The notes beneath the pieces were generated by a model that saw only the letters and a program-made list of their open reading frames with translations, had not been told where the DNA came from and did not search any database. 33,287 nucleotides of DNA from Chlamydiota bacterium (GTDB taxonomy: Bacteria > Auribacterota > UBA3054 > B51-G9), in assembly GCA_003648225.1 (NCBI GenBank), contig QMOL01000003.1, positions 1 through 33,287 of the forward strand, in the 5' to 3' direction. This document shows, one piece after another, positions 4,505 to 31,049 of the stretch. Every line of letters starts with the position of its first letter. Position 1 is the first letter of the stretch. The position numbers and the translations under genes are program-made.

Positions 4505-5881
4505 ATGAAAATTATAATTCTCGGTGCGGGTGGACTTGGACGTAACCTTGCAACTACACTTTGTGATGACAAACATGATGTTGTAATAGTTGATTTAAAA
4601 TCGAGGACTCTTAATAATATTAGAGAACATCTTGATGCTATGGTAATACAAGGTCACGGCGCTTCAATTAATGTGTTAAAACAAGCGGGTATTGAAAATG
4701 CTCAGTTATTAATTGCAGCCACTAGTGATGATGCTTCAAATATTCTTGCCTGCCAAATTGCAAATCATTTTAAGGTTGAAAATATAATTTGCCGCTTATA
4801 TTCTTATGATTTTTTTTCACAGCTAGATAATTTCACTCCTGAAATGCTGGGAATAACTGATACTGTTTTTCCGGAAGATGAATGTATAAAAAAAATATTA
4901 GATACTTTAGAGGATCAGAATATACTTGAAAAAATTGTTTTCAGTGCTGAAAATGCTGTAATGACAGTTTTTAGAATAAGAAATGATTCTCCAATTAAAG
5001 GTCTTGCCTTAAAAAATTTCCCCGATCCTGATCTTTTAAAAATTGTCAGATTTGCCGCTATTGTACGTGATAAAAAACTTATGATTCCACAAGGTGATAC
5101 AATTATTCAGCAAAATGATGAAGTATATCTCGCCGGAACAAAAAAAGGTATCAAAAGTATGATTGGCTGGCTTACGCCGGAAAATAAACCAATTAAAAAA
5201 ATAATCGTTGCAGGCGCAAGCCGTATGGGAATTAAACTTGCCGGTAAACTTGACAAAACAGGTTTTGATGTTCGGGTAATAGAAAATGATTTTAATAAAT
5301 GTGAAGAAATTATAGATAAAACAAAATCTGATATAAAAGTAATTAACGGTGATCCTACTAATTACTTTATACTGAAAGAAACCGGTATCAGTGAATGCGA
5401 TGTTTATATTGGCGTCCTTGATGATGATGAAGATAATATTTTAAGTTGTATCCTTGCCAAAAAACATGGCGCAAAAAAAGTGATCACCACAACTAAAAAA
5501 GGTGAATATATTAAAGTTGTTCCGGATCTGGATGTGATTGATTGTGGTTTTAACTCAGGTCTTGTAGCCGTAAATACCGTTCTCAGATATCTCGGTACCG
5601 GCACAGGTAAACTGAGTATCGATGCCGTCTTATATAGAGTTGATGCTTATGTTTATGAGTTCAAAATTGAATCAGGCTCTGAATTGTGCAATAAACAAAT
5701 TCATGAATGCGGAATCTTAGATTATGCTGTTATCGCTCTTATTTTTAGAAACGGGGGAGATGTTGTCATTCCTTCCGGAAGTCTTGAATTGAAAACCGGC
5801 GATATTATTGCTATTATTGCTACAAAGGATACCGCAAAAAAATTAGGGAAACTTTTTACTAAGAAAAAACTGTTCTCTTAA
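4505..5881 (+). CDS. trkA: Trk potassium uptake NAD-binding regulatory subunit TrkA
   Basis: 458 aa with two RCK N/C repeats; MKIIILGAGGLG, LKQAGIENAQLLIAAT, DEDNILSCILAK; adjacent to trkH. Confidence 0.95.
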   Translation: MKIIILGAGGLGRNLATTLCDDKHDVVIVDLKSRTLNNIREHLDAMVIQGHGASINVLKQAGIENAQLLIAATSDDASNILACQIANHFKVENIICRLYSYDFFSQLDNFTPEMLGITDTVFPEDECIKKILDTLEDQNILEKIVFSAENAVMTVFRIRNDSPIKGLALKNFPDPDLLKIVRFAAIVRDKKLMIPQGDTIIQQNDEVYLAGTKKGIKSMIGWLTPENKPIKKIIVAGASRMGIKLAGKLDKTGFDVRVIENDFNKCEEIIDKTKSDIKVINGDPTNYFILKETGISECDVYIGVLDDDEDNILSCILAKKHGAKKVITTTKKGEYIKVVPDLDVIDCGFNSGLVAVNTVLRYLGTGTGKLSIDAVLYRVDAYVYEFKIESGSELCNKQIHECGILDYAVIALIFRNGGDVVIPSGSLELKTGDIIAIIATKDTAKKLGKLFTKKKLFS

Positions 5882-5886
5882 TGAAG

Positions 5887-5941
5887 AAGGTTTAAGGTTT
5901 AAGGTTTAAGGTTTAAAGTTTAAGGTTTAAAGTTTAAGGTT
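5887..5941 (+). repeat. Heptamer tandem repeat (AARGTTT), about 8 units
   Basis: AAGGTTT x4, AAAGTTT, AAGGTTT, AAAGTTT, AAGGTT read directly. Confidence 0.9.
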
Positions 5942-6011
5942 GAATGGGTTCGCGACGCGCCCGGCGAATGCCGGGTAAAGCCTAAGGCTTAAGTGGGTAT
6001 TGGGAAAGGGA

Positions 6012-6051
6012 AAATTACTAAATTATTTAATTATTAAATTACCAAATTAAA
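6012..6051 (+). repeat. Degenerate octamer tandem repeat (AAATTANN) x5 abutting the trkH start
   Basis: AAATTACT AAATTATT TAATTATT AAATTACC AAATTAAA, then TTG. Confidence 0.55.
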
Positions 6052-7584
6052 TTGAATAAACGCGCTGTCATAAATGTTGTTTCTGCCCTTATTGTTGTTA
6101 TTGGTTTGATGATTCTTATTTCAGGAATTGTCGGATGGTTTATGAATGACCAACATAATGTTGTTTATCAGATGTATATAAGTGCTGCTTTTTCCATTGG
6201 CTTTGGCTCTGTTTTGTTTTTACTGACAAAAGCAAAGAATAAAAAGTTCCGGTTAGGAATTCGTGAGGGCTTTGGCATTGTTTCTTTAGGTTGGATTGCT
6301 GCTTCTGCTTTCGGCTGTATACCATTTATAATAATTTCAGATATGTTTTGGTATGATGCTTTCTTTGAAACAATGTCCGGATTCACAACAACAGGAGCAA
6401 GTGTTCTGGATGATAAACTGCTTCTAATGAATGGAAAAACTCTTGTCTATGGTATAGCGGATTTACCAAAAGGGCTACTTTTCTGGAGAAGTTTAACCCA
6501 TTGGTTAGGAGGAATGGGAATCGTTGTATTATCATTAGCTGTTTTACCTTTTCTGGGGATCGGAGGACAACAGTTATATAATGCTGAAGTCCCGGGACCA
6601 ACATCAGACCAACTTACTCCGAGAATTGCTAATTCCGCAAAAATTCTCTGGGGAGTATATATGTTATTAACAGTTGTTGAAGTCTTCTTGCTATGGATTG
6701 GAAATATGACGATGTTTGATGCCTGGTGTACTGCATTTGGTACCCTCGCAACAGGTGGCTTTTCAACTCAGCAATCAAGTATCGGTTATTATAACAGCAC
6801 ATATTTTGACGTCATAATATGTCTCTTTATGTTTCTCGCAGGTTGTAACTTTATTCTTCACTACAAAGCTTTACGCGGTAAACCTCTTTTCCACTGGAAA
6901 GATGAAGAATTCCGCTTCTATTTTGGCTTGGTCGTTCTTTCTTCTCTTTTGATCGCCGTATTATTAATGTTAAATAAAATTACAATTTACACTTCTGCCG
7001 GATTAGAAGTTGAACCCGGATTATTCAATTATCTGCGCTATTCTACATTTCAAGTTATATCAATATTAACTACAACAGGTTTTGTTACCGCAAATTTTAA
7101 CCTCTGGCCGGCTTTTGCTGCTATTTTATTGGTAACTCTTATGTTTATAGGTGGATGTGGCGGCTCTACAGGTGGCGGAATGAAAAACTCCAGAATTATT
7201 TTATTGCTTAAATATGGAAAAGTTCAACTTGAAAGATGTTTGTTCCCGCATCTCGTTTCTAATGTAAGGCTTAATAAAGAACGTATTCCTACGGTCACGC
7301 TTCATAAAGTAATGTCTTTTTTCTTCTTTTTTATAACCGTTTATCTGATTGTTGCTTTAGCTCTTTGTTTTTTAGATTCTAATATGGATTTTAAAACTTC
7401 CTTATCCGCCTCTATCGCAGCTTTGGGTAACATAGGACCGGGCCTGGGCAAAGTAGGGGCGATTTGCACTTATTCATGGATTACACCCTCTGCCAAAATA
7501 TTACTCAGTTTTTCAATGCTTCTCGGAAGGCTGGAATTATATACTGTTTTAGTATTATTCCTCCCGTCATTTTGGAAAAAATGA
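6052..7584 (+). CDS. trkH: TrkH potassium uptake permease (TTG start)
   Basis: FFETMSGFTTTGAS, LATGGFS, TTTGF, GGCGGSTGGGMK, LGNIGPG and MLLGRLE signatures. Confidence 0.95.
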   Translation: MNKRAVINVVSALIVVIGLMILISGIVGWFMNDQHNVVYQMYISAAFSIGFGSVLFLLTKAKNKKFRLGIREGFGIVSLGWIAASAFGCIPFIIISDMFWYDAFFETMSGFTTTGASVLDDKLLLMNGKTLVYGIADLPKGLLFWRSLTHWLGGMGIVVLSLAVLPFLGIGGQQLYNAEVPGPTSDQLTPRIANSAKILWGVYMLLTVVEVFLLWIGNMTMFDAWCTAFGTLATGGFSTQQSSIGYYNSTYFDVIICLFMFLAGCNFILHYKALRGKPLFHWKDEEFRFYFGLVVLSSLLIAVLLMLNKITIYTSAGLEVEPGLFNYLRYSTFQVISILTTTGFVTANFNLWPAFAAILLVTLMFIGGCGGSTGGGMKNSRIILLLKYGKVQLERCLFPHLVSNVRLNKERIPTVTLHKVMSFFFFFITVYLIVALALCFLDSNMDFKTSLSASIAALGNIGPGLGKVGAICTYSWITPSAKILLSFSMLLGRLELYTVLVLFLPSFWKK

Positions 7585-7665
7585 AAAATTTTTAGAAAAA
7601 AGCTGTTTTACTTTGTTTTTAAATCGAATTGAATATCGAATGTCAATTAACGATAGAAAATAAAA

Positions 7666-8868
7666 TTATCTGGTAAGAAGGTAGGCTAGAATATTTATAT
7701 TCATCAAATAAGCGTCAAGCGTTGTTTTAAAATCTTCCACGTTCGCATAAATTTTACGCTCATTATGCCATATTCTCGGACCTTGCCAGCGATAATATCC
7801 TTTCGCATCAGCCGCGAGGCCGTATTTAATCGCGTTACCTGTAGAATCGAGGGAAGCGAGCATAAAATCGCCATAATCATTGAGATTATAAATAACAACA
7901 ACTCTACCGTCAATTTCAATTGTTTCAATAGGTTCCTGCCAATAATTCATTCCCATAGGAACACCCTGAAAAACAACAAAAGAACGGAAAACTTTGTGTT
8001 TGTTACTAACCGGTTTTAAATCGTGGTCAGGAATGACACGTTTCATCTCACGGCGAAAAGCAACATCAAAACGCGATCGCCTACCCGGCAGGGAAGAATT
8101 AGCGACGATAGCGCCGCCCTGTAATATATACGTTCTGAGGTTTTCGACTTCCGCATCAGTAAATTTAAAATTCTTATGACCTGTAATATAAACAAAGGGA
8201 CTATCATGAATTTCCGGGGAATCCGCTCTGGCAACTACCGGAGTTTTATGTTTGACTTCAATATTTGTCCTGCGTTCAATTTCGTGAATGAGGTTAATAA
8301 GTGAGCCGTGAGTAAGATCCGGAACACTTTTCCCTTTTCTGTTTTTAATATGGTGGAATTCACAATCCCAGTCTCCGCCTTCATAAGACAAAAGTACAAT
8401 TTTATCAATGATAGCACGGATTGTTTTTCCGCTGCTTTCAACGCCATGTCTCGCGGCATAGTCACGGTACATCATATTTTTAACGCTTTTGCCGAGATTA
8501 TTAGCTGTTTTAAAATCGATTTTAGTTTTTTTCTTAAAGGTGAGAGTTTTAGGCCGCAATTTGCTTTTTATATTTCTTTTTACTACCAGTCTTTTCTCCA
8601 GCTTCTGCATCTTCTTCATCTTAGGTGGAGGAGGAGGTATATTAACCGGAATATTTTTAGGCATCACAACCGGTTTTGGTTGTTCGATTTTTTTCTTTAC
8701 AGGTTTTCTAAAAACACTCGTTATCGCATTCCGCATTGTCTCAGAACTTGAAACAATAACAAAGGCCATTGCAACAGCAATAATCGCGTGAATAAGAATA
8801 GACACGCCGAGAGCTTCTGACTGCCGAATAATATTATATCTTTTTTTTATAAATTCTTTAAATTTCAT
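7666..8868 (-). CDS. TonB-like membrane-anchored protein with a C-terminal DUF4159-like domain
   Basis: N-terminal TM with S-x3-H (VSILIHA), Pro/Lys-rich linker (PPPPP), C-terminal YEGGDW...SPFVYITGH..FKFTDAEVENLRTYILQGG resembling DUF4159. Confidence 0.75.
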   Translation of the reverse strand: MKFKEFIKKRYNIIRQSEALGVSILIHAIIAVAMAFVIVSSSETMRNAITSVFRKPVKKKIEQPKPVVMPKNIPVNIPPPPPKMKKMQKLEKRLVVKRNIKSKLRPKTLTFKKKTKIDFKTANNLGKSVKNMMYRDYAARHGVESSGKTIRAIIDKIVLLSYEGGDWDCEFHHIKNRKGKSVPDLTHGSLINLIHEIERRTNIEVKHKTPVVARADSPEIHDSPFVYITGHKNFKFTDAEVENLRTYILQGGAIVANSSLPGRRSRFDVAFRREMKRVIPDHDLKPVSNKHKVFRSFVVFQGVPMGMNYWQEPIETIEIDGRVVVIYNLNDYGDFMLASLDSTGNAIKYGLAADAKGYYRWQGPRIWHNERKIYANVEDFKTTLDAYLMNINILAYLLTR

Positions 8869-8870
8869 AT

Positions 8871-9314
8871 TTATTCAAAAACGCTTGAATCCGATGGAAA
8901 CGATATTTGATCAATGCCCGCGTAAGCACAGGCGTTAAGAACAGAAATAACTCGCTGGTGCTTAGTGTCACGCTGACCGCGAATAACTACCGGCTGTTCG
9001 GGATATGCTTGCTTGAGATCATAAAGAATTGATTTTAATTCCGGCAAATCAATCGATTTTGCTGAATCACTCGGCTGACCATTCCAATAAACTTCTCCTG
9101 TCGGGAAAATATCAACGACAACTTCTTCAGGTGAATCAAGCTGTTGCGCCTGTTTCATTTCATTATCAACGGGAATAGCCACTTTCAGCTCCGATTCGTC
9201 TTGAATTAAGCTTGCTGAAACGATAAAATAAATAAGCAGCAGAAAAACAATATCTACCATGCTTGACAGGTTCATTTCAACTGCATCTTCATCTCTACAT
9301 CCTCGAAAAGCCAT
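8871..9314 (-). CDS. exbD: Biopolymer transporter ExbD/TolR family protein
   Basis: NLSSMVDIVFLLLIYF with conserved TM Asp; VVIRG...VLNAC. Confidence 0.9.
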   Translation of the reverse strand: MAFRGCRDEDAVEMNLSSMVDIVFLLLIYFIVSASLIQDESELKVAIPVDNEMKQAQQLDSPEEVVVDIFPTGEVYWNGQPSDSAKSIDLPELKSILYDLKQAYPEQPVVIRGQRDTKHQRVISVLNACAYAGIDQISFPSDSSVFE

Positions 9315-9323
9315 AATTTTTAA

Positions 9324-9344
9324 TCGTTATTCGTTATTCGTAAT
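9324..9344 (+). repeat. Heptamer tandem repeat (TCGTWAT) x3 between the two exbD genes
   Basis: TCGTTAT TCGTTAT TCGTAAT. Confidence 0.6.
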
Positions 9345-9787
9345 TAATATTGTTCCTTCTGTTCCGCTTCCTGAAAAGCGGCGTAGGAAACATTCCATAG
9401 TCCCGCCTGCGCACATGAGCGCATAATATTCATCATTCTACCGTAATGAGCATTTTTATCTCCGCGAATAATAATTTTTTTATCTGTTTTGTCTGATGAA
9501 TCGGCAACTTTACGCAGTCCCTCAGAAAGTTTTTCCATAGGTAAAACAGAACCGCTGACTTTAACAGTGCCGTTCGACAGAACATTAATAAGGATTTCCT
9601 GAACCCCCTCGCTTTTCTTTGCTTGTGCGGAATCAGCAATAGGGAGCGATACTTGTTTTTCAAGTTCTAAATCCTGTAGTTGGGAAGCAACGATAAAGAA
9701 AATCAGCAGAAGGAAAACAATATCAATCATAGAAGCAACCTGAAAGCCGATTTCTTCTTCTTTATGTTTCTGTTTAAATTTCATCAT
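9344..9787 (-). CDS. exbD: Biopolymer transporter ExbD/TolR family protein
   Basis: SMIDIVFLLLIFF; IIIRGDKNAHYG. Confidence 0.92.
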   Translation of the reverse strand: MMKFKQKHKEEEIGFQVASMIDIVFLLLIFFIVASQLQDLELEKQVSLPIADSAQAKKSEGVQEILINVLSNGTVKVSGSVLPMEKLSEGLRKVADSSDKTDKKIIIRGDKNAHYGRMMNIMRSCAQAGLWNVSYAAFQEAEQKEQY

Positions 9788-10521
9788 TGTTCAAATTTTT
9801 CAATAATTTCGCCAATCTTATCTTCAACAAGTACCATAAGATCATTTAAACGATTTCTGAAAAAGAAAAATGCCGCCATTGCAGGAATAGCAATAACTAA
9901 TCCACCCGCGGTGGTAATCAACGCTTCAGAAATATTATCAGCGAGAACAGACGCTTTGCCCATTCCCATTGTGGCGATATTTCCGAAAGCTTTAATCATA
10001 CCGGAAACAGTACCAAGCAACCCGAGCATGGGAGCGATAGTCGCGATAGTATTAAGATAAGAGATTTTAGTTCTTATAGCCGAAGCTTCTCGAGCACCGT
10101 GCTCAGCGATAGCTTCTTCCATAGCGGTTTTGCCGCGTTTTTTTGCTTTCAAGCCTGCACCGATAATTCTGGTAATCGCGCAAGGATTTTCTTCACAAAT
10201 TGCGAGTGTGGCATTGACATCGACTTTATCTGCTTCAGCATCGAGTTTTTCTGTTACATCTGTCGGCATAAGTTTGTCAGCTTTAATAAGCATAACCGCG
10301 TCAACGATAAGATAAACCATACCTACTGATAACAGAAGAATTGCGTACATAAAAATACCGCCTTTTACAAAAACAAGTTCAAAAAGACTTGTTTTTTTAG
10401 GCGCTGCAGTTGCTGCTACGTCATTCGTTACAGCAAAAAGGATTGCCGGAGTAAGTAAAACACCAATAGATAGTGAGTAATATTTCGCGCGTTTAATAAA
10501 AATTTTTATTATGCTTGTCAT
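9784..10521 (-). CDS. exbB: MotA/TolQ/ExbB proton channel family protein
   Basis: TIAPMLGLLGTVSGMI and ISEALITTAGGLVIAIP signatures. Confidence 0.92.
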   Translation of the reverse strand: MTSIIKIFIKRAKYYSLSIGVLLTPAILFAVTNDVAATAAPKKTSLFELVFVKGGIFMYAILLLSVGMVYLIVDAVMLIKADKLMPTDVTEKLDAEADKVDVNATLAICEENPCAITRIIGAGLKAKKRGKTAMEEAIAEHGAREASAIRTKISYLNTIATIAPMLGLLGTVSGMIKAFGNIATMGMGKASVLADNISEALITTAGGLVIAIPAMAAFFFFRNRLNDLMVLVEDKIGEIIEKFEQ

Positions 10522-10526
10522 TGTAA

Positions 10527-11357
10527 TTAATCTCCTTTAACATTGTTGATAGATGAAAGTTTTTTCTCAGCAATTTTGGCGCCATCGGTATTCGGATACG
10601 CTTCAATAATTTGTTTATAATAAAATGCCGCCTCATTCGTGCGACCGGCCTGTAAAAACAGATCCGCGCATTTTGCCTGTGTGCTTTCCTGAAGTTCATC
10701 AACATCACCATGCAAAACGATAATGCTAACATATTCTTCGAGAGCTTTTTTGGGTTGATTTACCGACTCGTAATATTTTGCGAGTCCCTGGTGCGCTTTC
10801 GCGCGTATTCGGTCGCTGGTTCTTGGATTTTTAACTAAATCTTTTAATTTTTTCTCTAACTCGGGGCCCGGCTTACCTGAAAGTTGGAGTTCAATAAGCC
10901 AGTATTCAGCTTCGTTTCTGTAACGTGTCTTCGGAAATTTATCAAGTAGTTTTTGAAGAATAGGCGCCGCTTCTTTTGTCTTTCCTTCATTTGCAAGGCA
11001 AATTCCCACACCATAAAGCGCGCGTTCAAACCACGGCACCTGCAGGTCATTATATCTTTTAAGCCATTGAGTAAAAATGGGTTCTGCCTTCGCGTATTTC
11101 TTTTGTTTGATTAAAGAAAAAGCTTTTTCGGCATTTCTCGGCGGAGTCATTTTTGTAAGTTTAAAACTTATTTTATTATCGTCAAACTCCATCTTCGCCT
11201 GTTTCGTTCTTATAGCTACTTTGCCGGGAGATGACCGCGAAACAATACCATTATATTTTTTGCCGCTTTTTAAAACAAGAATATCTGCCATCACTGTCAA
11301 TCCTGCAAATAAAACAAGAACAGCCAAAACGAAGAATATTTTAATTTTATTTGTCAT
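10527..11357 (-). CDS. Exported TPR protein with a small N-terminal beta domain
   Basis: Signal peptide, DILVLKSGKKYNG beta-rich segment, then TPR-like helical pairs (LLDKFPKT, IIEAYPNT). Confidence 0.8.
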   Translation of the reverse strand: MTNKIKIFFVLAVLVLFAGLTVMADILVLKSGKKYNGIVSRSSPGKVAIRTKQAKMEFDDNKISFKLTKMTPPRNAEKAFSLIKQKKYAKAEPIFTQWLKRYNDLQVPWFERALYGVGICLANEGKTKEAAPILQKLLDKFPKTRYRNEAEYWLIELQLSGKPGPELEKKLKDLVKNPRTSDRIRAKAHQGLAKYYESVNQPKKALEEYVSIIVLHGDVDELQESTQAKCADLFLQAGRTNEAAFYYKQIIEAYPNTDGAKIAEKKLSSINNVKGD

Positions 11358-14146
11358 TTTTGCACCTTAGGATATAGTTCAGTAAACTTTTTCCGCGCTG
11401 CGGATGCTTGTTCGGTCAACCCGAGTTTTTTATAAGATTTTATCAAACCTTCAAATGCCGGCACACCATATTTTTTAATTTTTCCATATAGAATTGTCGC
11501 TCGTTTAAAATATTGCGCGGCTTTTTTATATTCATTTTTATTATACATACTTTTGCCTTTTAATACAACTGCACGAGCAGACATTTCAGCGCCACTTCTT
11601 AGTTTAATTGCCTGGTCACACAAGCTGATAACTTTGTCATAATCATTTAGTTCTATTAAACATTCTGCCTGATCTAAAAAAGCTATGGCATTAATTTTAT
11701 TATCAGGAATAATACATTCGCTAAGCAATTTCGCGTAAGTTTGTTCCGCGGATTCATATTCTTTTTGGAAAAACAATGCGCGGGCGTGTTGGAAAAGCGC
11801 TTCATCAAGTCCCAGATTTGTCTGGAGACAAATTGTTTCTGCTTGCTCAGCTGTTTCCGCGGCTTTTTGGTATTCCTTCTTTTCGTTAAGAATTCCCGCT
11901 TGTAAAGCGAGTGCGTAGCCCAAAACGTCATTATATTTTATTTTCTCAATTGCTAATTCCGGCATAACCAATGCTGCTTCTTTCGGTTTTCCTGCGTGCA
12001 TAAGCACACCTGCTTTAGCTATATCTATATAAATTTTCGCGTTAGGTTTTTCTTTGGAAAGCTTATCCGTTTCGGCAAGAAATGTGTCAAACTGATTAAA
12101 TTTCTGATTGTAAATGTCTCCGGCGCGAACAAGAGAATAAATTCCATATCCGGTATATGGAAACTTGTTGAAAGCAAATTTTAATGCTTCAAGCGATTTG
12201 GCAAAATTGTTTCCAAGCGCGTAACTTTCACCAGCAAGATACGCGGCTTCCGAAGCATAACTATGATTTGGAAAGTTTTCAATTAATGTTTTATAAGTTT
12301 CCGCAGCCTCATTGTAAGCAGTTGTGTTTCTAAGTAAATATCCAATCCAATAATATGCATCGCCGGCTTCACTTGAAACAGGATATTTTTCAATAACTTT
12401 TGCGAGCGCGTTGCTCATACCGACAGTATCATCCATATAATATTTACAGAACGCGATTTGCAGTTGAGCATAAGGAAGGACGGGATTTGTTTCTGATAGT
12501 CCTCCGGAAATGATAGAATTAAAAGTTTTTTCGGCTTCAGCATATTTTTGCGCTTGCATTTGTGCTTCACCAATAGAAAATTTTGCTTGTGGAACAAGTT
12601 CACTGTCAGGAAACCTATCAACAAAATTCATATACGCGGTTGAAGCGTTTTCATATTGCCCCGCTTGCATATAATTGTCACCTATAAGAAATGTCGCGTT
12701 CTCAATTAAATTAGTCGCCGTGATTTTTCTGTATTGGTCTATCGCGGCAATAAATTTGTTTGTGGCGGTCAGATAATCCGCATAAATCATATGAACCTCC
12801 TGAACTCGTTCAGCGGCGGTATCTGCCTCATCAGAAGAGGGAAAATCATTAATGAGATTCTCAAGAGTTGTAATCGCGCGATTATAATATTTTTGTTCAA
12901 TAAACGCTTCCGAAAGGTAGATATAACTTGCCGGAACCAATTCGCTGTCGGGGAATTTTTTCGCAAATTCTTTTAACGTTTGTTCTGCATCAGTAAATTG
13001 TTTGGCGTTCAGATAAGCTATTCCCAGCATATTAAAAGATACTTCCGCGTACGCGCCTGTCGGGAATTCTTTTAAACCCATTTTAAGATTATAGATCGCG
13101 TTGGAATAATCGTGTTTTTCCATAAGTCTTTGCGCAAAATAAAGCCTTACATCGTTAACTGCTGTTTTTTTATCATGCGTTTTCAAAAAATTAAAATATG
13201 ACTTTTCCGCGCGACCATAATTCCCGTAATCAGCATCGCTTAAAATAGCTCTGTGCCACGCTTCAGTTGACATCTCCGTATCAGCATAAAGTTTAGCTAC
13301 GCCATCGAAACCAATATGCGCTTCAAGCGGGTGATCGAGTTTTTCGTAAGTTTGAGCTATTTCAAACAGAATTCCCGCGTTCAATTTTCTCGCCTCCAAG
13401 TCATTCCCTTTAGATTTAATGCGTCTATATTGGTCGATTGCTTTAATTAAATTTCCGTTTTGCCTGTAGATATCACCAAGTTTAAAAAGCGCGCTGTTTT
13501 TAGCATCTCTATTTTTAGCCGTTTTAACAAGCAGGGACATTAATTTTTCGGTTTTTTTATAGTTTTTCTGCTTTGCCGCAATATTTGCTAAAAGATAAAT
13601 TGCACCGTCGTGCATAGAACTTTTTTCATTCGCGGCAACAGGTGTAAGCAATTTGCTTGCATCTGCATAGTCGCCTTTGGCTATGTAAGATGACGCAAGC
13701 TGATAATAAGCCGAGTCTTTTGCCGCGCTTCTGGGTTTGTTTTTGAGAAAAGTTTTGATGTGCTGTATAGCTTCATCATATTTGCCCTTGGCAGTCATAA
13801 TTCTCGCCTGAGCAATTATCGCTGAATCTACACGAGCTATTTTATCACCATATTTGCCGTATCGTTTGAGTAGAAGATTAAGTGTAGCGGCGGCTTTGTT
13901 GTATTGACCTATGTCGATATAAGCCGAACTAAGTTGAAAGAGAATTTCAGAATTAGCAGAGTGGAAAGGATGTTTTTTTTCTGCCTGTTCAAGAAGAGGA
14001 ATTGCGATTTTTGTGTTACCGCTTTGTGCCGCCGCAAGCGCTTGTTCGATTAATTTATCGGATTTTGATTCCGCGTTGCTGTAAAATGAAAAAGCAAGCG
14101 CGAAGATTATCAATAAGATTTTTGAATATTTTTTAATAAATATCAT
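11354..14146 (-). CDS. Large exported tetratricopeptide repeat protein (BamD/CpoB-type repeats)
   Basis: Signal peptide (..YSNA|ES) then many TPRs with the 'F/YPxS..A' turn. ATG at 14146 preferred; the track's TTG at 14173 is an alternative. Confidence 0.85.
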   Translation of the reverse strand: MIFIKKYSKILLIIFALAFSFYSNAESKSDKLIEQALAAAQSGNTKIAIPLLEQAEKKHPFHSANSEILFQLSSAYIDIGQYNKAAATLNLLLKRYGKYGDKIARVDSAIIAQARIMTAKGKYDEAIQHIKTFLKNKPRSAAKDSAYYQLASSYIAKGDYADASKLLTPVAANEKSSMHDGAIYLLANIAAKQKNYKKTEKLMSLLVKTAKNRDAKNSALFKLGDIYRQNGNLIKAIDQYRRIKSKGNDLEARKLNAGILFEIAQTYEKLDHPLEAHIGFDGVAKLYADTEMSTEAWHRAILSDADYGNYGRAEKSYFNFLKTHDKKTAVNDVRLYFAQRLMEKHDYSNAIYNLKMGLKEFPTGAYAEVSFNMLGIAYLNAKQFTDAEQTLKEFAKKFPDSELVPASYIYLSEAFIEQKYYNRAITTLENLINDFPSSDEADTAAERVQEVHMIYADYLTATNKFIAAIDQYRKITATNLIENATFLIGDNYMQAGQYENASTAYMNFVDRFPDSELVPQAKFSIGEAQMQAQKYAEAEKTFNSIISGGLSETNPVLPYAQLQIAFCKYYMDDTVGMSNALAKVIEKYPVSSEAGDAYYWIGYLLRNTTAYNEAAETYKTLIENFPNHSYASEAAYLAGESYALGNNFAKSLEALKFAFNKFPYTGYGIYSLVRAGDIYNQKFNQFDTFLAETDKLSKEKPNAKIYIDIAKAGVLMHAGKPKEAALVMPELAIEKIKYNDVLGYALALQAGILNEKKEYQKAAETAEQAETICLQTNLGLDEALFQHARALFFQKEYESAEQTYAKLLSECIIPDNKINAIAFLDQAECLIELNDYDKVISLCDQAIKLRSGAEMSARAVVLKGKSMYNKNEYKKAAQYFKRATILYGKIKKYGVPAFEGLIKSYKKLGLTEQASAARKKFTELYPKVQK

Positions 14147-14243
14147 ACCGATTTTTAATAAGCCATTAGACAACGAAATAATATATAATTATGGTTGTTG
14201 TTTTATTTTTTATTTGCTTTAATTTAGAGTATAACTTTATTAA

Positions 14244-14272
14244 ATTATATCCTACTTGACAGAATTTGTCAA
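14244..14272 (-). promoter_or_regulatory. Consensus sigma70 promoter of the TPR-exbBD operon with an overlapping palindrome
   Basis: TTGACA (14272-14267), 17 bp, TATAAT (14249-14244); inverted repeat TTGACA-GAATT-TGTCAA at 14256-14272. Confidence 0.75.
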
Positions 14273-20589: not shown

Positions 20590-21291
20590 ATGATATCAAC
20601 GCAATTCTTAAATTATAAAAACTGTAATATCCGGTTTTGGCTATGCTTTATTTTATTCGTTCTTTTATTTGTTCAGTCTTCTAATTCTTACGCTAAGGTT
20701 AAACTTCCTCCACCGTCAACTATAGAGGGATATATTACATTATTACTTATTAATGAAGCTCCTTTTCCGGGTGAAAAGAATTACAAAAATGAAAAAGATA
20801 CCAAATTGGCCATGCTATCTATACTTGTGGTTTTAGACAACAGACTTAAACATATTCCGCCCGGCTATAAACAAAAATATATAGCAACTGTGAGAACTAA
20901 AAATATTGTCGAAATAATTGCTGCAGGTGGAAAACGAGGTCAGGTTGATGGCTTTTATCTTGACTCAAACGGGAAACCGGCAATTGTGCCAAGAGTAACC
21001 CGGCGTGTAAAAAACTTACTAAATATTGCATCGAAAGGAAAACCGGGAATATTTGCCCGGCTACTAAATTACGCCGCCGAAATATCCGGGAAATACTTAA
21101 AGGGCAAAAACATAAACGATATGTATGTTAATTTAAAATTTATTCCTCCGTATAAAGTTACCGGGCGGGCATATTCATGGATGACCGATAACTTAAGTTT
21201 CCATCCCGGAGGGCAATATATTACCATTCCCGACAAAAACAAAGGTTCTCTTGGCGGCAATCGATTTTTCACCTTAAAAAAATTAAAATAA
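20590..21291 (+). CDS. Exported hypothetical protein, probable divergent SleB/Hydrolase_2 cell wall hydrolase
   Basis: Signal peptide; [29 protein letters not shown] and C-terminal LGGNRFF follow the SleB motif order. Confidence 0.55.
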
Positions 21292-21292
21292 A

Positions 21293-22144
21293 ATGAAAAA
21301 AATACTTATACTTATACTGTGTTTTGCAACAATTAATTCTCTTGCAGCTAAAAAATTTATGAAACCTGAAAACGCGGAATTCCTGCGCGGCGTTCTTCGT
21401 TACATTTATTTCTGGCATCTTGATCCCGCTCATTTCTTTGAAGATGACCCGGATACAAATATTGAGGTTTATGTCAAAAAAAACAGTTATTCAAAAGATT
21501 TAAATAATAATTCTATACGATACGAACTTATAATTCCCGACCTTAATCTGGGAATTGACCTTGTAAAAGCAAATTATAAAATCCGTGAACTTGACCTTCA
21601 GATAACTAACTCTTCTTTTAAAGTTGTTGCGGTTAATCCTGATTTTCGTGAACCAATAACAAATAAAAATTTTCAGGTGCGGCTTCTTAGTGAAGGTAAG
21701 ATGATGAAAAAATTGTTTCAAAGCCGATACAGACCCGCTGTCTTATCCGGTTGTGTTAAAACAAATATCTACAACAGTTTGGTTAAACTCTCTAAATTAG
21801 AGCTCGGTCATCCCTTAAAAAAATCACATGTTTTCTTCGTTGGTCCCCTTTCTGATTATTCAAATGATATTTGGATTTTCTGGGAAACCGAGCGAAAACT
21901 TGTAAGATTTTCTTCTGCTTCAGATTATACTTCAAAAGCATATTGGCAATTATTGCCGATATATGTTAAAATATATGATCTTGATAGCAATGTTGTTGTT
22001 TCGCTTAGCGAAGTTAGCGGTAGTAATGCTTATATTACAAAGTCTTTTGCCGGTCGGATAATGTTTAATTGCATTGTTGAAGGTAAAAAAATTATTATTA
22101 AAAATCAAGATAAAATAACCACAAAACAGGAGACAAAAAAATGA
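21293..22144 (+). CDS. Exported hypothetical protein
   Basis: 283 aa ORF, MKK-type signal peptide, starts 1 bp after the upstream stop; no family recognised. Confidence 0.75.
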   Translation: MKKILILILCFATINSLAAKKFMKPENAEFLRGVLRYIYFWHLDPAHFFEDDPDTNIEVYVKKNSYSKDLNNNSIRYELIIPDLNLGIDLVKANYKIRELDLQITNSSFKVVAVNPDFREPITNKNFQVRLLSEGKMMKKLFQSRYRPAVLSGCVKTNIYNSLVKLSKLELGHPLKKSHVFFVGPLSDYSNDIWIFWETERKLVRFSSASDYTSKAYWQLLPIYVKIYDLDSNVVVSLSEVSGSNAYITKSFAGRIMFNCIVEGKKIIIKNQDKITTKQETKK

Positions 22145-23091
22145 AAAAAATATCTTTTTTAATTTTATCAATATTCTTTATTGGTTTATTAAACGTAAAT
22201 TCTTTCGCAAAAGTTAAAAGCAATGCTAAAATTAAAAAGCCGAATCTTATTGTACAAAAAGAAGCTGCAATTAAAGAAATGACAGATGAAATTTTTGCTA
22301 TTGACTCAAAAATAGAAGGAGAGGTCGGTCAAATTATCAATTATTTGTCTTCTGTTAAAGATTCTGCAGAATCTCACACCAAAGTAGCCGTTATTAAAGA
22401 AAAAGCAATACTCGCTCTTGCAAATAGTGTTGCTGATTATAAAAGAGAACGCGCTAAAAGAATGAATGAATTAAGCAAACGCTATCCTAATTTGTCACGT
22501 GACATTCTTAAAAAACAAATCGGGATTGCCGATGAAAGAATTAACAAAAGAATTAAGCAGATTGTTGACATTACTTCTTCATTAACTCAAAATCAAAATG
22601 TTAAAAAATATGATAAATATTGGACGCGACAGCGGCGTTCCGGAAGACGTGCCAAAGTCAAATCCGGAAAAAAGATTTCGAAAGAGTATAAACAGAATAG
22701 AAGTGTTACTGCTAAAAGCAACGCTTTAAAAGATAAGGTAATTAAAGGATTAAATGATGAGATTGATACACTTGAAGCCAAAAACGTTTCTTTAAACACT
22801 AAAATTCAAACTGAACGCTCAAAAGAAATTAAAGAACAGTACAAAAAAGAAATTGAGGCTAATAAAGTCACAATCGAAAAAAGAAAACAACAGATTGCTG
22901 ATGCCGAAGCCCAAACAGCTGTTTCAACAACACCGCTTCAATATAATGACGCAAAAGAATTAGAAAAACAAATTACAGACATGGTTCTTGATATTGAAGA
23001 TCAGGAAGCAAAAATGAAACAGCTTATTTATAAACGTAATATGGCACTTAAAAAACTTGCAACTTATAAAAAAGCTGCCGGTAAAAAATAA
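22141..23091 (+). CDS. Exported long coiled-coil hypothetical protein
   Basis: Signal peptide (..NSFA|K), CAGGAG RBS, ATGA-region overlap, K/E-rich heptad helices with a central basic loop RQRRSGRR. Confidence 0.8.
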   Translation: MKKISFLILSIFFIGLLNVNSFAKVKSNAKIKKPNLIVQKEAAIKEMTDEIFAIDSKIEGEVGQIINYLSSVKDSAESHTKVAVIKEKAILALANSVADYKRERAKRMNELSKRYPNLSRDILKKQIGIADERINKRIKQIVDITSSLTQNQNVKKYDKYWTRQRRSGRRAKVKSGKKISKEYKQNRSVTAKSNALKDKVIKGLNDEIDTLEAKNVSLNTKIQTERSKEIKEQYKKEIEANKVTIEKRKQQIADAEAQTAVSTTPLQYNDAKELEKQITDMVLDIEDQEAKMKQLIYKRNMALKKLATYKKAAGKK

Positions 23092-23317: not shown

Positions 23318-24367
23318 TTAATTTTCCTTAATCCACTTCGCTCCCCTGCCTTTTCCCCGTACAGCGATTACTCTTTCATCTCTTAATTTTCTTAAAATCA
23401 CACGAATCATATCGCGACTGATAAGCGGGCAATCAGCTTCAATATCGGAAATAGCAAACGGCCCAATTCGTCTTTGCACCGCGGCAATAATCTGGTCTGT
23501 TTTTGATCCTTTTCCGCTTCTTATATTAGAAACTTTGTCTTCGAGTTCGCTATAAGCTTTTAACAAAACTCCCCAAAAATAGTTCAGCCACGGAAAGCTG
23601 TTGTGTTTTTCTTTATGCCAGTTTTTTGAGCTGATTTCAAGGGTTTCATAATAAGATTGCTTTGATTCCTCAAAAATACGCTCAAGACTTATATATCTGC
23701 CTACCTGATAATCAAAATGATACAGCAGCATCAGTGTAATTAAACGAGCAACACGTCCATTCCCGTCACGGAACGGATGAATACAAAGAAAGTCAAGAAT
23801 TGTAAGAGGAATAACTATCAAAGCTTCAATTTCATTTTCTAAAGCTGATTTTATATAATTCTCTTCCAAATTTTTTAATGCTTTTTTTGTTTTATTTGCC
23901 GGAACAGGTTTAAAACGGACTTTTTTGAACGAACCATCTGAATTCAGTTCTATAATTTCATTATCGGTTGTTTTGATCTTCCCGCCATCTTCCGGCATAT
24001 AATTATATATTATTCTATGAAGTTGTAAAATTGTTTCAACTGAAAATTTTACGTCTTCACCGGAAGAATGAATTAATGAAAGCGCGTCTCGATAACCGGC
24101 TATCTCCTGTTCCGACCTGTTTTCCGGTTTTAATTCTTTTTTTACAATTCCTTCAACTCGTTTATGAGGAGCCGTAATTCCCTCCAGACGATTTGACGAT
24201 TCACTCGATTCAATAATAGCGATATGCTGGAGTGAATCAAGAGCTTCAGGTGTTTGTCTGAAAAAAAGTTCCTGTTTTCCTCTATGTTCACCAATTTTTT
24301 TCATTATACTGAGATGCACAGGAGAAAAATTTAGAGAGTTAATGTATTTATCTGTTAAGGAATTCAT
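23318..24367 (-). CDS. Fic family protein (class II-like) with a probable C-terminal winged HTH
   Basis: Intact HPFRDGNGRVAR; N-terminal inhibitory motif SNRLEG; C-terminal ISRDMIRVILRKLRDERVIAVRGKGRGAKW. Confidence 0.92.
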   Translation of the reverse strand: MNSLTDKYINSLNFSPVHLSIMKKIGEHRGKQELFFRQTPEALDSLQHIAIIESSESSNRLEGITAPHKRVEGIVKKELKPENRSEQEIAGYRDALSLIHSSGEDVKFSVETILQLHRIIYNYMPEDGGKIKTTDNEIIELNSDGSFKKVRFKPVPANKTKKALKNLEENYIKSALENEIEALIVIPLTILDFLCIHPFRDGNGRVARLITLMLLYHFDYQVGRYISLERIFEESKQSYYETLEISSKNWHKEKHNSFPWLNYFWGVLLKAYSELEDKVSNIRSGKGSKTDQIIAAVQRRIGPFAISDIEADCPLISRDMIRVILRKLRDERVIAVRGKGRGAKWIKEN

Positions 24368-27980: not shown

Positions 27981-30900
27981 TTATTTTTTCTTAGATGATT
28001 TATCGGTCTTTTTTTGGAATGTATTCAGCAATCCACGAAAAAGTTCAACTCCATCTTTTTCCACATCGTTATCGTCATCATTATCATTACCGAACAGTTT
28101 ACCAATGGATTTAATCGCATCGGATCCAAGCATTTTAATAAGTGTGGGAACAAAATCCTTAATATTAGATTCAAGTTTTGGTTTACCAATTTTTCCATCA
28201 ATTTTTACAGGTAAAGGTAATTCATAAAATTTATCTAAAGCACCTGTAAAAGGAATTCTGAATTTTGAGTTTTGACGGGAAAAAATTCTTGCGATAGCTC
28301 TTCCGCTTAACGCCAAATAAATGTTCAAATCAAGATTGTTATTTATTGTTGTCGTCCCGTCAATACCCATTTTTATTGATTTGCCTTCAATATTTACATT
28401 GTCAATAAAATTTGTTCCATAAAGTAAATGGGCATTAAGCACAACTTTATTAAAAGAATAATCAGAAAGCTCTTTTATTTTCAATTTTTCAGATAAAACA
28501 GTTAAAAAAGGCATGTTTTTTAAATGACCGTCATTAATATAAAGTTTAGCTTTACCACGGAAATTTTTTACAATATTTGATTTAGAAAATCCTCTGCCGG
28601 TAAAAGAAAGATCACCATTAAGCTTTCCTACAATTTTATCGCTTATCTCCGGTGCCCATAATTCTAAAATGGGCGTTAAAGGAATGTGAGCCACCTTTAA
28701 CGTCGAAGAATAAATATATCCGGTAACATTTAAATCCGCTTTAACGTCTAAATCAAAATTTCCTTCATTAATTATCATATTGCGGGTTATAAAATTAATT
28801 TTATTGCTTTTTATAATAAAATCAAAACTTAATGGAGCCGCTATCATATCCCTGGCGATAAATTGGTCGATATGTGTTTTAAAATTAAGATTAAGAAATT
28901 GAAGTTTTGGTGGTACAGGCTCTTTATAAATAGCTTTTTTTATTTTGCTAATTTCAACAGCTGTTCCGTTTTTTTCATTCTTATTCTTTTTCTTTTTATG
29001 CTTAGATTTTTTTATTGGAATAATTGTATTTAATAAAGCCGTTGAATCAAAATGCTCGGATTGAAGTGTTAAATCTGATTGTTGACTGTTTTTCTTTAAA
29101 TTAATTTCTCCTGTTAATTTAAGACTGTTATCATCCCATTTACCCGGAGTAATTGAAAGTTTACAATTATTAAAAATTAATTTATCCGGAGTTTGATTTA
29201 CGTCAATATTTAGAGATAGTTTTTCAAGTTCGTTATCAAAAAAGTGATTTGAGTTCTTGATATTTAAGAAAGCTGAAATTTTTCTGTTTTTTGTTTTTTG
29301 TTTTTGTTCCGCTAAAATTTTTAAATCTAAAATCAGATCGTCTATTTTTTTATTTGTTCCCTTAATGTCTATTAATGGACGAATTAAACTCCCGGAAAAA
29401 TCATTTGCTACAAAAGCGATCTTTTCAGTCCCGGAATGAATTTTATAATATCCTCCAGCAGCAATTTCACCTGCTTTTTTCTTATTAATTGAAAATACTG
29501 CGTTAAAGCGGGAAAGAGAAATTGAGTTAAAATTATTTATATTACCGGCAATATCTAATTTTATACCAAGATGTTGCCATCTTGATTTATTAATTGAAAA
29601 ATCTATTTGGTTTCCAATTATAGAACTGTCAAGAGTTATTTTATCACCAATACCTAAAACATCACAATCTATTTTCCCGCTTGCATTTCCGGAATTAAAA
29701 ATAATATTTTTTGATTCGGTAAAATAATTAATATATTTAAGATTAACATCGTTAATAACTAAACTAATTTTTGAACTTTTATTTGTGTTTATTACTGCTC
29801 TGTCTTTTTTATTTAAGTTTATCAAAATTGGCTTGGATATTTTAAGCTGAATCATTGGATGTGCTTTATCTTCAACAATGAAATTAGCACTCTTAATTTT
29901 GAAAAGCTCTAATTTGTGATTTAAAGCAATATTAAATATTCCGGCAAAATTAACAGCGGGAAGTTTTTTGCTTTTCTTCGCGTAAATTTTCTTCAATACA
30001 ACTTTGCCGTTAATTTTATATTTGTCATTGGCTAAATCAGCGTTACAATTAAAAATACCGTTTCCGTAACTTTGACTTATATCATATTTTTTTTGCGGAT
30101 GAAATAAAGCTTGATATAAATTATTCGATTGTACATCAATATGGAATTGACAATTAATAATATTATCAACCAAGTCAATTTTGCCTGTAACAAACAGTGT
30201 TGAAATTTTATTTCCGTTCCAATAGCCTTCGAACAGACATTTTGAAAAATCTAAAACATTACTATTGTTTGTCATATTAATGTTTAATTCAGCCGTAAAA
30301 GGGGATAAATTAATTTTTCCGGCATGGCCTACAGCATTTGATACTAATAACGTTGAAAAGAATACATTTGGAATAATTGATTTCTTAACAGTATAATTCA
30401 TTTCCCAGCCAAAAGGAAGAGAATCCATAAACACATTCTTGCCATCGCTGTAAAAGAATGAACCTTTTGCAAGCGCCGAACCTGAATTTTCGGGTTCGAT
30501 ATCTATTCCCGCTAAATTAAAATCATCTATACCAAAAGACGTTTTTTGATTATCTGAATAACTAAAATAAAGATTTTTAATAACTAATTTTTTTATTCTA
30601 ACAGGAAAATCGGGTAAAACAAAAAGTTTTTTCTTCTTATTCTTTGGTTTTTTCGACTTTCCGGGCGCAAAATCTTTTTTTTGCTTATTTGGTGCTACAG
30701 TTCCTCTTGAGGAGGTTGTGTAATTTACTCCCTCTACTTTAACAAGATAAAACAACGGTACATCAGAAAAAAGTGAAGAAGCTTTATAATTTAAATCAAT
30801 TAAATTTGCGGACAAATAAAAATTAGTTACATCGGTTTTACTTGATATATCGGCAATTACTAATCCATTTGCATTTAAAGATTTCCATGGCCGAAAATTC

Positions 30901-31049
30901 CAGTTTTTGACACTTATTTTTACAGGAACAAAAACATTTATAAGTGGTAAAGTAATATGTTTGAAAAGAATATTTGAACATAACAAGCTGAAAACAAACA
31001 ATAAAATAAGTATAAATGTAATAAACAAATACTTAAAAAATCTTTTCAT
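27981..31049 (-). CDS. AsmA-family large beta-rich envelope protein
   Basis: N-terminal TM, about 1000 aa of amphipathic beta strands, AsmA-like C-terminus (FTGRG..FRGKAKLYINDG...LPVKIDGKIGKP). Confidence 0.7.
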   Translation of the reverse strand: MKRFFKYLFITFILILLFVFSLLCSNILFKHITLPLINVFVPVKISVKNWNFRPWKSLNANGLVIADISSKTDVTNFYLSANLIDLNYKASSLFSDVPLFYLVKVEGVNYTTSSRGTVAPNKQKKDFAPGKSKKPKNKKKKLFVLPDFPVRIKKLVIKNLYFSYSDNQKTSFGIDDFNLAGIDIEPENSGSALAKGSFFYSDGKNVFMDSLPFGWEMNYTVKKSIIPNVFFSTLLVSNAVGHAGKINLSPFTAELNINMTNNSNVLDFSKCLFEGYWNGNKISTLFVTGKIDLVDNIINCQFHIDVQSNNLYQALFHPQKKYDISQSYGNGIFNCNADLANDKYKINGKVVLKKIYAKKSKKLPAVNFAGIFNIALNHKLELFKIKSANFIVEDKAHPMIQLKISKPILINLNKKDRAVINTNKSSKISLVINDVNLKYINYFTESKNIIFNSGNASGKIDCDVLGIGDKITLDSSIIGNQIDFSINKSRWQHLGIKLDIAGNINNFNSISLSRFNAVFSINKKKAGEIAAGGYYKIHSGTEKIAFVANDFSGSLIRPLIDIKGTNKKIDDLILDLKILAEQKQKTKNRKISAFLNIKNSNHFFDNELEKLSLNIDVNQTPDKLIFNNCKLSITPGKWDDNSLKLTGEINLKKNSQQSDLTLQSEHFDSTALLNTIIPIKKSKHKKKKNKNEKNGTAVEISKIKKAIYKEPVPPKLQFLNLNFKTHIDQFIARDMIAAPLSFDFIIKSNKINFITRNMIINEGNFDLDVKADLNVTGYIYSSTLKVAHIPLTPILELWAPEISDKIVGKLNGDLSFTGRGFSKSNIVKNFRGKAKLYINDGHLKNMPFLTVLSEKLKIKELSDYSFNKVVLNAHLLYGTNFIDNVNIEGKSIKMGIDGTTTINNNLDLNIYLALSGRAIARIFSRQNSKFRIPFTGALDKFYELPLPVKIDGKIGKPKLESNIKDFVPTLIKMLGSDAIKSIGKLFGNDNDDDNDVEKDGVELFRGLLNTFQKKTDKSSKKK

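Follow-up and report, generated by a model that had tools for sequence, protein, structure and literature searches.

A putative force-transducer cassette with a DUF4159 head in a Chlamydiota bacterium and its apparent relative, the Akkermansia MUL1 locus

The DNA analysed here (the window) is a stretch of 33,287 nucleotides from a Chlamydiota bacterium (contig QMOL01000003.1), placed in Auribacterota by the GTDB lineage. Six open reading frames (ORFs) on its minus strand fill positions 14173..7666. They encode two tetratricopeptide repeat (TPR) proteins, an ExbB/TolQ-type proton channel subunit, two ExbD/TolR paralogues (ExbDa and ExbDb), and a 400-residue protein with a DUF4159 domain. This operon is very probably a member of the class of motor-driven force-transducer cassettes of the Planctomycetes-Verrucomicrobia-Chlamydiae (PVC) group. 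The 400-residue protein combines the architecture of TonB and TolA with another kind of head, a non-TonB α/β domain that belongs to the class I glutamine-amidotransferase-like type. As a whole, the operon is best explained as a force-transducer cassette for which import is the most likely role, an explanation that we regard as evenly balanced between right and wrong.

The transducer, its motor and the operon

The transducer is composed of three parts: a membrane helix (residues ~19-41), a Pro/Lys linker (~55-118), and the DUF4159 head (~150-400). A basic N-terminal stretch is followed by the hydrophobic segment A19-S41, which contains S23-I-L-I-H27 and leads into the Pro/Lys-rich stretch. In the AlphaFold2 (AF2) model (114 sequences), which has a mean predicted local distance difference test (pLDDT) value of 81.6, residues 11-41 form a continuous helix and residues ~150-400 form a confidently predicted α/β head. 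The linker is disordered in this model, with pLDDT values below 50 at residues 68-77, 82-97, and 103-116 (within blocks 61-120).

The head was identified by several comparisons. The Pfam family PF13709 (DUF4159) matches residues 185-336 with 110.7 bits against a gathering cut-off of 25.9. It is the only family found on the transducer at E <= 0.01, and no TonB C-terminal domain (PF03544/PF13103) was found at this threshold. The head also matches the DUF4159 protein Hoch_4089 (PDB 4i66), both by profile comparison (E 1.8e-18) and by Foldseek (E 4.9e-13). VIA-align superposes the two structures with a Z value of 25.1 and a root-mean-square deviation of 2.1 over 197 residues (29% identity; transducer residues 153-399). 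After 4i66, the Z values of the fold matches drop to 7-9, and these matches belong to class I glutamine-amidotransferase-like domains (PurQ, HisH, Pdx2, ThuA-like, and the IFT52 N-terminal domain). A von Willebrand A (vWA) signal was found neither among the Pfam families at E <= 0.01 nor among the VIA and Foldseek matches listed; a vWA-like description of the head is still compatible with these results. The invariant residues of the head (Gly, Phe, Glu, Ser, Asp, Arg, Asn, and Tyr) are centred on the motif ...LPGRRSRFDVAFRREMKRV..., and because no Cys is seen among them, a catalytic amidotransferase triad in the DUF4159 head is unlikely. An earlier note on this DNA had called the last protein TonB-like, and a standard TonB_C or TolA fold would have spoken against its reading. 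The S23-x3-H27 helix and the disordered linker agree with the former; as for the latter, the head is DUF4159 by Pfam, profile comparison, Foldseek, and VIA alike.

The His residue in the membrane helix is widely kept. Across 24 diverse homologues that were aligned, the conservation of His27 is 90% or more. Among the motor-linked transducers from public genomes, the membrane helix is present in 38 of 38 and the His in 24 of 38. Transducers without a motor nearby (orphans) have the helix in 31 of 32 cases, and 30 of these 31 carry the His, often as S-x3-H. The helix His is lacking at L020, L024-L026, L028, L030, L033, L037, L041, L043, L048, L050, L052, and L061. The 14 motor-linked transducers without it are mostly from Kiritimatiellia or unclassified Verrucomicrobiota; by eye, a Tyr is found instead (e.g., ...SL.FYL...).

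Two metagenomic proteins of 655 residues (P0223 and P0224) join a Peptidase_M56 module (BlaR1-type, PF05569) to DUF4159. In other bacteria, the M56 module is fused to TonB_C domains. This would make DUF4159 and TonB_C interchangeable heads in a second architecture.

The ExbB motifs GL.GT..GM and T..GL..AIP are conserved in 35 sequences. ExbDa and ExbDb share only 26.6% identity; both read ...M(I/V)DIVFLLL... with Asp21, and this membrane Asp is conserved in 90% or more of the 35 orthologues of each paralogue. The best-scoring NCBIfam models for the motor subunits are those of TolQ and TolR, though the scores are far below the equivalog cut-offs: ExbB reaches 86.5 bits with tolQ (cut-off 221) and is likewise below the cut-off of the exbB equivalog, and the two ExbD proteins reach 55.5 and 62.0 bits with tolR (cut-off 127.3).

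In a maximum-likelihood tree of 81 ExbD rows (none dropped), for which the program warns of long branches, the starred ExbDa clade (98/92) holds 34 of the 35 ExbDa rows. The ExbDb proteins form groups of their own, and the pair of L044 is an outlier. The ExbD proteins of a true TonB cluster (L095) and those of two other pairs in the window's own genome (contigs C193 and C109) lie outside the ExbDa and ExbDb groups. The separate clades indicate that the ExbDa/ExbDb duplication is old and specific to the cassette.

Both TPR proteins have signal-peptide-like N-termini and match the YbgF/CpoB-type and BamD-type TPR models of NCBIfam. The large one matches many TPR families in Pfam. It scores 207 bits with TIGR02795 (YbgF/CpoB-type; cut-off 90.1), as 10 stretches of a repeat protein, and 130.8 bits with the BamD-type model. 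The small one scores 61 bits with TIGR02795, which is below the cut-off.

The six ORFs are separated by junctions of -4, +5, -4, +29, and +2 bases (ORF listing), and a promoter-like site is found in front of them (Table 1). Of the 31 promoter-like sites detected between 7400 and 14700, no other fits the consensus perfectly; its assignment is a consensus match alone. The earlier note had described six tightly linked genes behind one consensus promoter, two different ExbD proteins, each with the membrane Asp, and an operon without a TonB-dependent receptor, TolB, or Pal. The ORFs, their spacing and Pfam domains, the promoter-like site, the two ExbD sequences, and a domain scan of the window all agree with this description. 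That scan covered the other 20 large ORFs and detected no Plug (TonB-dependent receptor), TolB, or Pal/OmpA domain. The first protein is indeed a large TPR protein; its length is 939 or 930 residues, depending on the start codon, rather than the 931 given earlier.

Table 1. Features of the operon and of the region in front of it
Feature	Position	Strand	Remarks
Sigma-70-type promoter-like site, TTGACA-17-TATAAT	14272..14244	-	12/12 consensus match; ~70 bases 5' of first ORF
Large periplasmic TPR protein	11354..14173	-	939 residues from TTG, 930 from ATG at 14146; Pfam/NCBIfam TPR; N-terminal signal-peptide-like segment
Small TPR protein, Mul1B-like	10527..11357	-	276 residues; signal peptide, short conserved β-rich N-terminal segment, TPR-like helices
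ExbB/TolQ-type proton channel subunit	9784..10521	-	245 residues; PF01618, E 1.3e-28; N-terminal signal-like extension
ExbD/TolR paralogue a (ExbDa)	9344..9787	-	147 residues; membrane Asp21; Pfam ExbD, E 1.2e-23
ExbD/TolR paralogue b (ExbDb)	8871..9314	-	147 residues; membrane Asp21; Pfam ExbD, E 3.5e-25; own conserved C-terminal motif
TonB/TolA-like force transducer	7666..8868	-	400 residues; Pfam DUF4159 (PF13709), E 8.6e-32

Distribution of the cassette and its genome context

A word-indexed search (E <= 1e-5) gave 301 transducer homologues, of which the named ones carry the labels Verrucomicrobia, Aureabacteria, or Methylacidiphilales. In a scan of one genome per species, 265 relatives were confirmed among 362 pattern matches, and 80 loci holding 85 transducer genes were kept. 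A locus was considered judgeable if 2.5 kb or more of sequence was available upstream (n = 67); the other 18 have too little upstream DNA. ExbB-ExbDa-ExbDb lies directly upstream of the transducer in 34 of the 67 judgeable loci, one has a partial motor (L086), and 32 have no motor nearby. In 29 of the 34 complete cassettes, a TPR gene on the plus strand directly precedes ExbB, and a large TPR gene or TPR match lies within 8 kb in 31. Even among the 18 loci short of upstream DNA, a full motor is seen in three and ExbDb at the contig edge in four. Complete cassettes come from records labelled Verrucomicrobiota, Kiritimatiellia, Methylacidiphilales, Planctomycetia (L039), Auribacterota (L014), and the window's lineage (L009 and L013). 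Because the same order recurs in half of the judgeable loci, and these come from several phyla, the six-gene arrangement is far beyond chance. The reading in the earlier note presupposed a gene order conserved elsewhere, and this survey of neighbourhoods bears it out.

Most of the orphan copies, some of which stand in tandem, belong to Chthoniobacterales and Verrucomicrobiae. Eight orphan loci were scanned for neighbours. In two of them, orphan His-bearing DUF4159 arms stand directly before FG-GAP repeat proteins of 700-750 residues (L016:9630-11888 and L027:9723-11825). In two others, the arms have as neighbours CHB_HEX_C giants, a sugar transporter, and an acetyl-xylan esterase (L069:3166-15720), or a GH18 enzyme (L088:7402-8385). 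The remaining neighbours are unrelated genes.

Close relatives of the window's genome carry the transducer almost without exception. It is present at full length in 16 of 17 genomes of the same genus or order (missed in G015), usually as a single copy. One of these genomes, G013 (92% complete), has the same six-gene operon with NusA/IF2 downstream. Of 23 genomes that belong to the phylum but not to the window's order, one (G037) has a full-length transducer. In a 401-genome sample from the phylum of G041, at least 95 genomes have a DUF4159 match at E <= 1e-10 and at least 14 have a full-profile match; these counts are lower bounds, four first-look candidates per genome having been scored.

The window's own genome (G000) is a bin of 239 contigs that is 64% complete. 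It contains three DUF4159 loci (contigs C3, C137, and C235), the proteins of which are 86-92% identical. C137:4470-7431 and C235:3-5098 correspond to window positions 4505-10521, so that three versions of one locus are present in the bin. C235 repeats the TrkH/TrkA flank, and the flank of C137 differs (PhoU_div and PMT_2). Three paralogous systems were considered and rejected in view of this high identity, the shared flank of C235, and the single copy in most relatives. The three loci are more likely to derive from co-binned related populations than to be paralogues. Since related populations are apparently co-binned, copy numbers taken from this bin are unreliable.

Motor and receptor genes elsewhere in the lineage give the cassette its context. 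A Plug domain was not found in G000, within its 64% completeness, and is present in only 1 of the 17 relatives (completeness 68-93%). A TonB-dependent receptor as the target of the cassette is therefore unlikely. TonB_C was not found in G000 either. A meaning for this absence was rejected: a TonB_C/TonB_2 protein of ~330 residues occurs in 15 of the 17 relatives from the order, so that the absence in the incomplete bin is taken as an assembly gap. G000 also contains a TolB gene on C59 and ExbB-ExbD pairs on C193, C109, and C116, the pair on C193 being followed by a partial ORF. In G013, a separate cluster (L095; C9:84000-100000, at ~7965-10493 on the minus strand) encodes ExbB, two ExbD proteins, and a 313-residue TonB_2/TonB_C protein, followed by a methyltransferase and a serpin. 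Here too, a Plug domain was not found. As TolB, ExbB-ExbD pairs, and a TonB_C cluster are thus encoded separately, the DUF4159 cassette adds a further motor system to this lineage, from which TonB-dependent receptors are nearly absent.

Four secretin-domain matches are found on contigs C24, C205, C47, and C45 of G000 (L111-L114), some of which are possibly co-binning duplicates.

Within the window, the operon is flanked by housekeeping genes. The fatty-acid synthesis genes plsX-fabH-fabD-fabG-fabF lie upstream on the same strand, and TrkA and TrkH genes lie downstream in convergent orientation. Some other genes of the window may be mentioned. At 27981-33090 on the minus strand, a 1022-residue protein resembles AsmA weakly (E 9.6e-12, well under the cut-off) and has no other match. 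A thioredoxin-like gene stands before it and DsbD after it, and the three might form an envelope-biogenesis and redox cluster. Three overlapping or abutting ORFs of 233, 283, and 316 residues occupy 20590-23091 on the plus strand, where the local G+C content falls to 0.31-0.35; they gave no Pfam match at E <= 1e-5 and no NCBIfam match at E <= 0.01. A 349-residue Fic/DOC-domain protein (23318-24367, minus strand) stands alone between these ORFs and a PIG-L deacetylase gene.

Apparent relation to the MUL1 locus and possible role

The nearest studied relative of the cassette appears to be the MUL1 locus of Akkermansia. The gene mul1A (amuc_0544) is described as a mucin transport gene, the transposon mutant of which was unable to use mucin glycans (PMC12570417). 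MUL1 and MUL2 are described as mediating mucin transport and processing, and MUL1 as a locus that "resembles the Sus system" and may be gut-specific (PMC13174399); this paper contains no "TonB", "ExbB", or "TPR". According to PMC12418764, the products of MUL genes are pili and periplasmic complexes on which accumulation in internal compartments depends. A paper linking MUL1 to the DUF4159 cassette was not found in the literature searched. MUL1 as its authors define it may include the motor genes.

The relation was seen in the small TPR protein and in the ExbD pair. The family NF052542 (Mul1B family putative transporter subunit) matches the small TPR protein of the window with E 6.4e-4 and 19 bits, against a cut-off of 75. 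When the small TPR proteins (profile of 23) were compared with Mul1B (profile of 10), the probability was 94.9% and the E value 4.6e-8 over 177 co-linear columns, though TPR-like repeats can inflate scores of this kind. This result supersedes the comparison of a single Mul1B sequence with the small-TPR profile (probability 7.5%). The small TPR protein thus seems to be a homologue of Mul1B at the profile level. Furthermore, in G363 and G366, weak NF052542 matches lie 2.2-2.4 kb upstream of the full-length transducer on the same strand, which is the position of the small TPR gene.

In the 401-genome sample, NF052542 is above its cut-off in 30 genomes. At three such loci (L105-L107, in G253, G106, and G367), ExbB-ExbD-ExbD genes lie upstream, on the same strand, of the genes for a TPR protein of ~1100 residues (TPR1101) and Mul1B. 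Of the two ExbD proteins at these loci, the first is a member of the ExbDa clade (98/92) and the other groups with ExbDb of the window's lineage (97/82); both are away from the TonB-cluster ExbD proteins in the tree, which carries the long-branch warnings. Contig C116 of G000 ends with a 294-residue ExbB and a single ExbD (7101-8440; L091), the partners of which lie past the contig end. This ExbD, too, sits within the ExbDa clade, where it joins the ExbD of the Mul loci (97/89, long branch). In profile searches, a full-length DUF4159 transducer was not found in G253, G367, or G124, and G106 and G391 gave domain-size matches only. In L105, the 206-residue ORF that separates ExbDb from TPR1101 matches no family and reads as non-coding. 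The large TPR protein of the window gave no phmmer match to TPR1101 at E <= 1e-3.

How the cassette might work can be outlined as follows. ExbB/ExbD motors pass proton motive force through TonB or TolA, and Ton and Tol motors work as 5:2 complexes (ExbB5-ExbD2). By homology and from the retained Asp, a pentamer of the ExbB/TolQ-type subunit with ExbDa and ExbDb would turn proton flow into pull or rotation. The 400-residue protein, given its TonB-like anatomy, would dock on this motor by its His-bearing membrane helix; its Pro/Lys linker would span the periplasm and present the DUF4159 head to a partner in the envelope. The two TPR proteins, which bear signal peptides, may serve as periplasmic scaffolds. 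The two ExbD proteins might pair as a heterodimer and the motor might act on the TPR scaffolds, as the earlier note proposed. Large substrates, for example, glycans or glycoproteins, would thereby be captured or imported with proton power in bacteria where TonB-dependent receptors are largely missing.

We rate such a role in polymer capture or import somewhat below an even chance, but as the most likely of those considered. It is favoured because of the relationship to MUL1 and the carbohydrate-related neighbours of some orphan arms. Of the three roles offered in the earlier note (protein handling, envelope remodelling, and macromolecule uptake), the last gains support from the MUL1 link. A wider and more doubtful proposal is that the small TPR protein, ExbB, ExbDa, and ExbDb, with a swappable TonB-like arm, form an ancestral, PVC-wide energiser of "selfish" polymer import. 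MUL1 would then be a derived, arm-less offshoot and not a gut-specific invention, and the orphan His-bearing arms beside FG-GAP and carbohydrate-active genes would be substrate-specific and served by the motor in trans. If so, the module would fill the place that TonB with SusC-type receptors has in Bacteroidota.

Several points weigh against polymer import. DUF4159-headed cassettes are known from sequence alone. MUL1 seems to work without a DUF4159 head, since the MUL1-type genomes examined have no full-length transducer, and there is no overlap between the 30 Mul1B genomes and the 14 in which a full-length transducer was detected. The direct match of the small TPR protein to the Mul1B family is far below the cut-off, the scores of TPR-rich profiles are prone to inflation, and the ExbD tree has long branches. 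The operon stands among housekeeping genes (fatty-acid synthesis here, NusA/IF2 in G013), not in a glycan-degradation locus. The motor genes of Akkermansia may also fall outside MUL1 as its authors define it.

Some of these points would fit a Tol-Pal-like machine for envelope maintenance or division, which would attach the outer membrane or act on wall synthesis at the constriction without importing anything. This explanation is the main rival, though an unlikely one. The YbgF/CpoB-type and BamD-type matches of both TPR proteins, the preference of the motor subunits for the TolQ and TolR models (below the cut-offs as they are), and the housekeeping neighbours all suit it, and a near-universal, single-copy gene in the order is what a core envelope function would show. 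However, a Tol- or Ton-like set seems to exist in parallel, because TolB (C59), an ExbB-ExbD pair with a partial ORF (C193), and, in the relatives, TonB_C/TonB_2 proteins are encoded elsewhere, in G013 behind an ExbB-ExbD-ExbD set of their own. In addition, the operon has neither TolB nor Pal, and MUL1, the closest studied relative, is reported to have an uptake phenotype. If the Tol-like explanation were true, these bacteria would have a second, parallel motor for envelope tethering.

Two further explanations carry much less weight. A surface motility or adhesion machine, in which the motor would move or hold adhesins through the DUF4159 head, is very improbable. A gliding analogy with Myxococcus was suggested by the authors of PMC12204202. 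On the structural side, the head matches the IFT52 N-terminal domain (5fms, Z 8.9; 8bd7_B, Z 8.5) and an OST48-type domain (6s7o_G, Z 7.0) in the middle range. IFT52 and OST48-type domains are grouped as "GIFT" with the gliding protein GldG. These Z values are, however, tied with those of ordinary amidotransferases and indicate a common fold only, and adhesin, gliding, and pilus genes were found neither in the operon nor in the window. An ordinary Ton system, in which a divergent TonB would serve receptors encoded elsewhere, is close to refuted. The ExbB/ExbD families, the S-x3-H helix, and the Pro-rich linker are those of such a system, and G013 has a true TonB_C protein in the order exbB-exbD-exbD-tonB. 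Against this stand the positive identification of the head as DUF4159, the near absence of Plug domains described above, and the position of the ExbD pair in clades separate from the TonB-cluster ExbD proteins.

The cassette offers a testable candidate for the passage of large glycans across the outer membrane in Planctomycetes, Verrucomicrobia, and their relatives, which have few or no TonB-dependent receptors. Should the MUL1 link be true, the mucin phenotype of Akkermansia, the sole genetic one in the family, would extend to a cassette of several phyla, and DUF4159 would gain its first functional context.

Comparison with known systems

The cassette has been described computationally: PVC bacteria carry TPR-tolQ-tolR-tolR-transducer cassettes with two heterologous tolR-like genes (Mol Biol Evol 2025, PMC12204202). 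The transducer described there has a membrane helix with SHLS/His, a disordered Pro-rich linker, and a globular non-TonB head, and AlphaFold3 (AF3) models of the helix docking on the motor are given. According to the same paper, no deletion phenotype is known for the cassette, and gliding or adhesion was put forward speculatively. The earlier note had proposed a third type of machine driven by proton motive force. This is right in substance but was already in print. A functional study of a TolQ/vWA force transducer or of an ExbB-ExbD-TPR operon in Planctomycetes was not found in the literature searched.

The window operon resembles the published cassette in gene order, the three-part transducer, the PVC distribution, and the co-occurring TPR gene. 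The head is labelled there as a "vWA fold" resembling YfbK, whereas the head in the window is DUF4159, as in 4i66; the two were compared by description only. The published seed (Tichowtungia, Kiritimatiellia) is said to have His35. No protein named as Tichowtungia was among the matches listed for a Kiritimatiellia transducer (at least 120 homologues). The large TPR gene belongs to the same operon in the window's lineage, whereas it is divergently transcribed in the Kiritimatiellia loci. Beyond the published description, the present analysis identifies the head as DUF4159/4i66-like, counts how many arms are motor-linked and how many are orphans, finds Plug domains nearly absent from the order, and provides sequence and tree evidence that ties the cassette to MUL1.

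DUF4159 itself was mentioned only by the Pfam database paper in the literature searched. PDB 4i66, a structural-genomics entry from Haliangium ochraceum, contains the same domain as a stand-alone protein of 200-209 residues. In the window, by contrast, the domain is the tip of a membrane-anchored protein with a linker.

With the Ton system, the cassette shares the proton-driven ExbB/ExbD motor with its membrane Asp, the His-bearing helix, and the Pro-rich periplasmic spacer. It differs in having DUF4159 in place of the TonB_C head, in its own ExbD clades, and in that no Plug receptor was found in G000. With Tol-Pal and its CpoB (YbgF), it shares a TolQ/TolR-like motor, and a three-part transducer like TolA; its TPR proteins match the CpoB-type model as separate stretches of a repeat protein (the large one) or below the cut-off (the small one). 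Unlike Tol-Pal, the operon has no TolB or Pal (TolB being on C59), the TolQ and TolR scores are far below the cut-offs, and the head is not TolA domain III.

The MUL1-type locus shares with the window a large TPR protein and a Mul1B-type small TPR protein beside ExbB-ExbD-ExbD, and an ExbD pair that groups with ExbDa and ExbDb. The order differs: the motor genes come first, followed by a gap of ~1 kb and then by TPR1101 and Mul1B. The mucin-uptake phenotype is known for Akkermansia alone.

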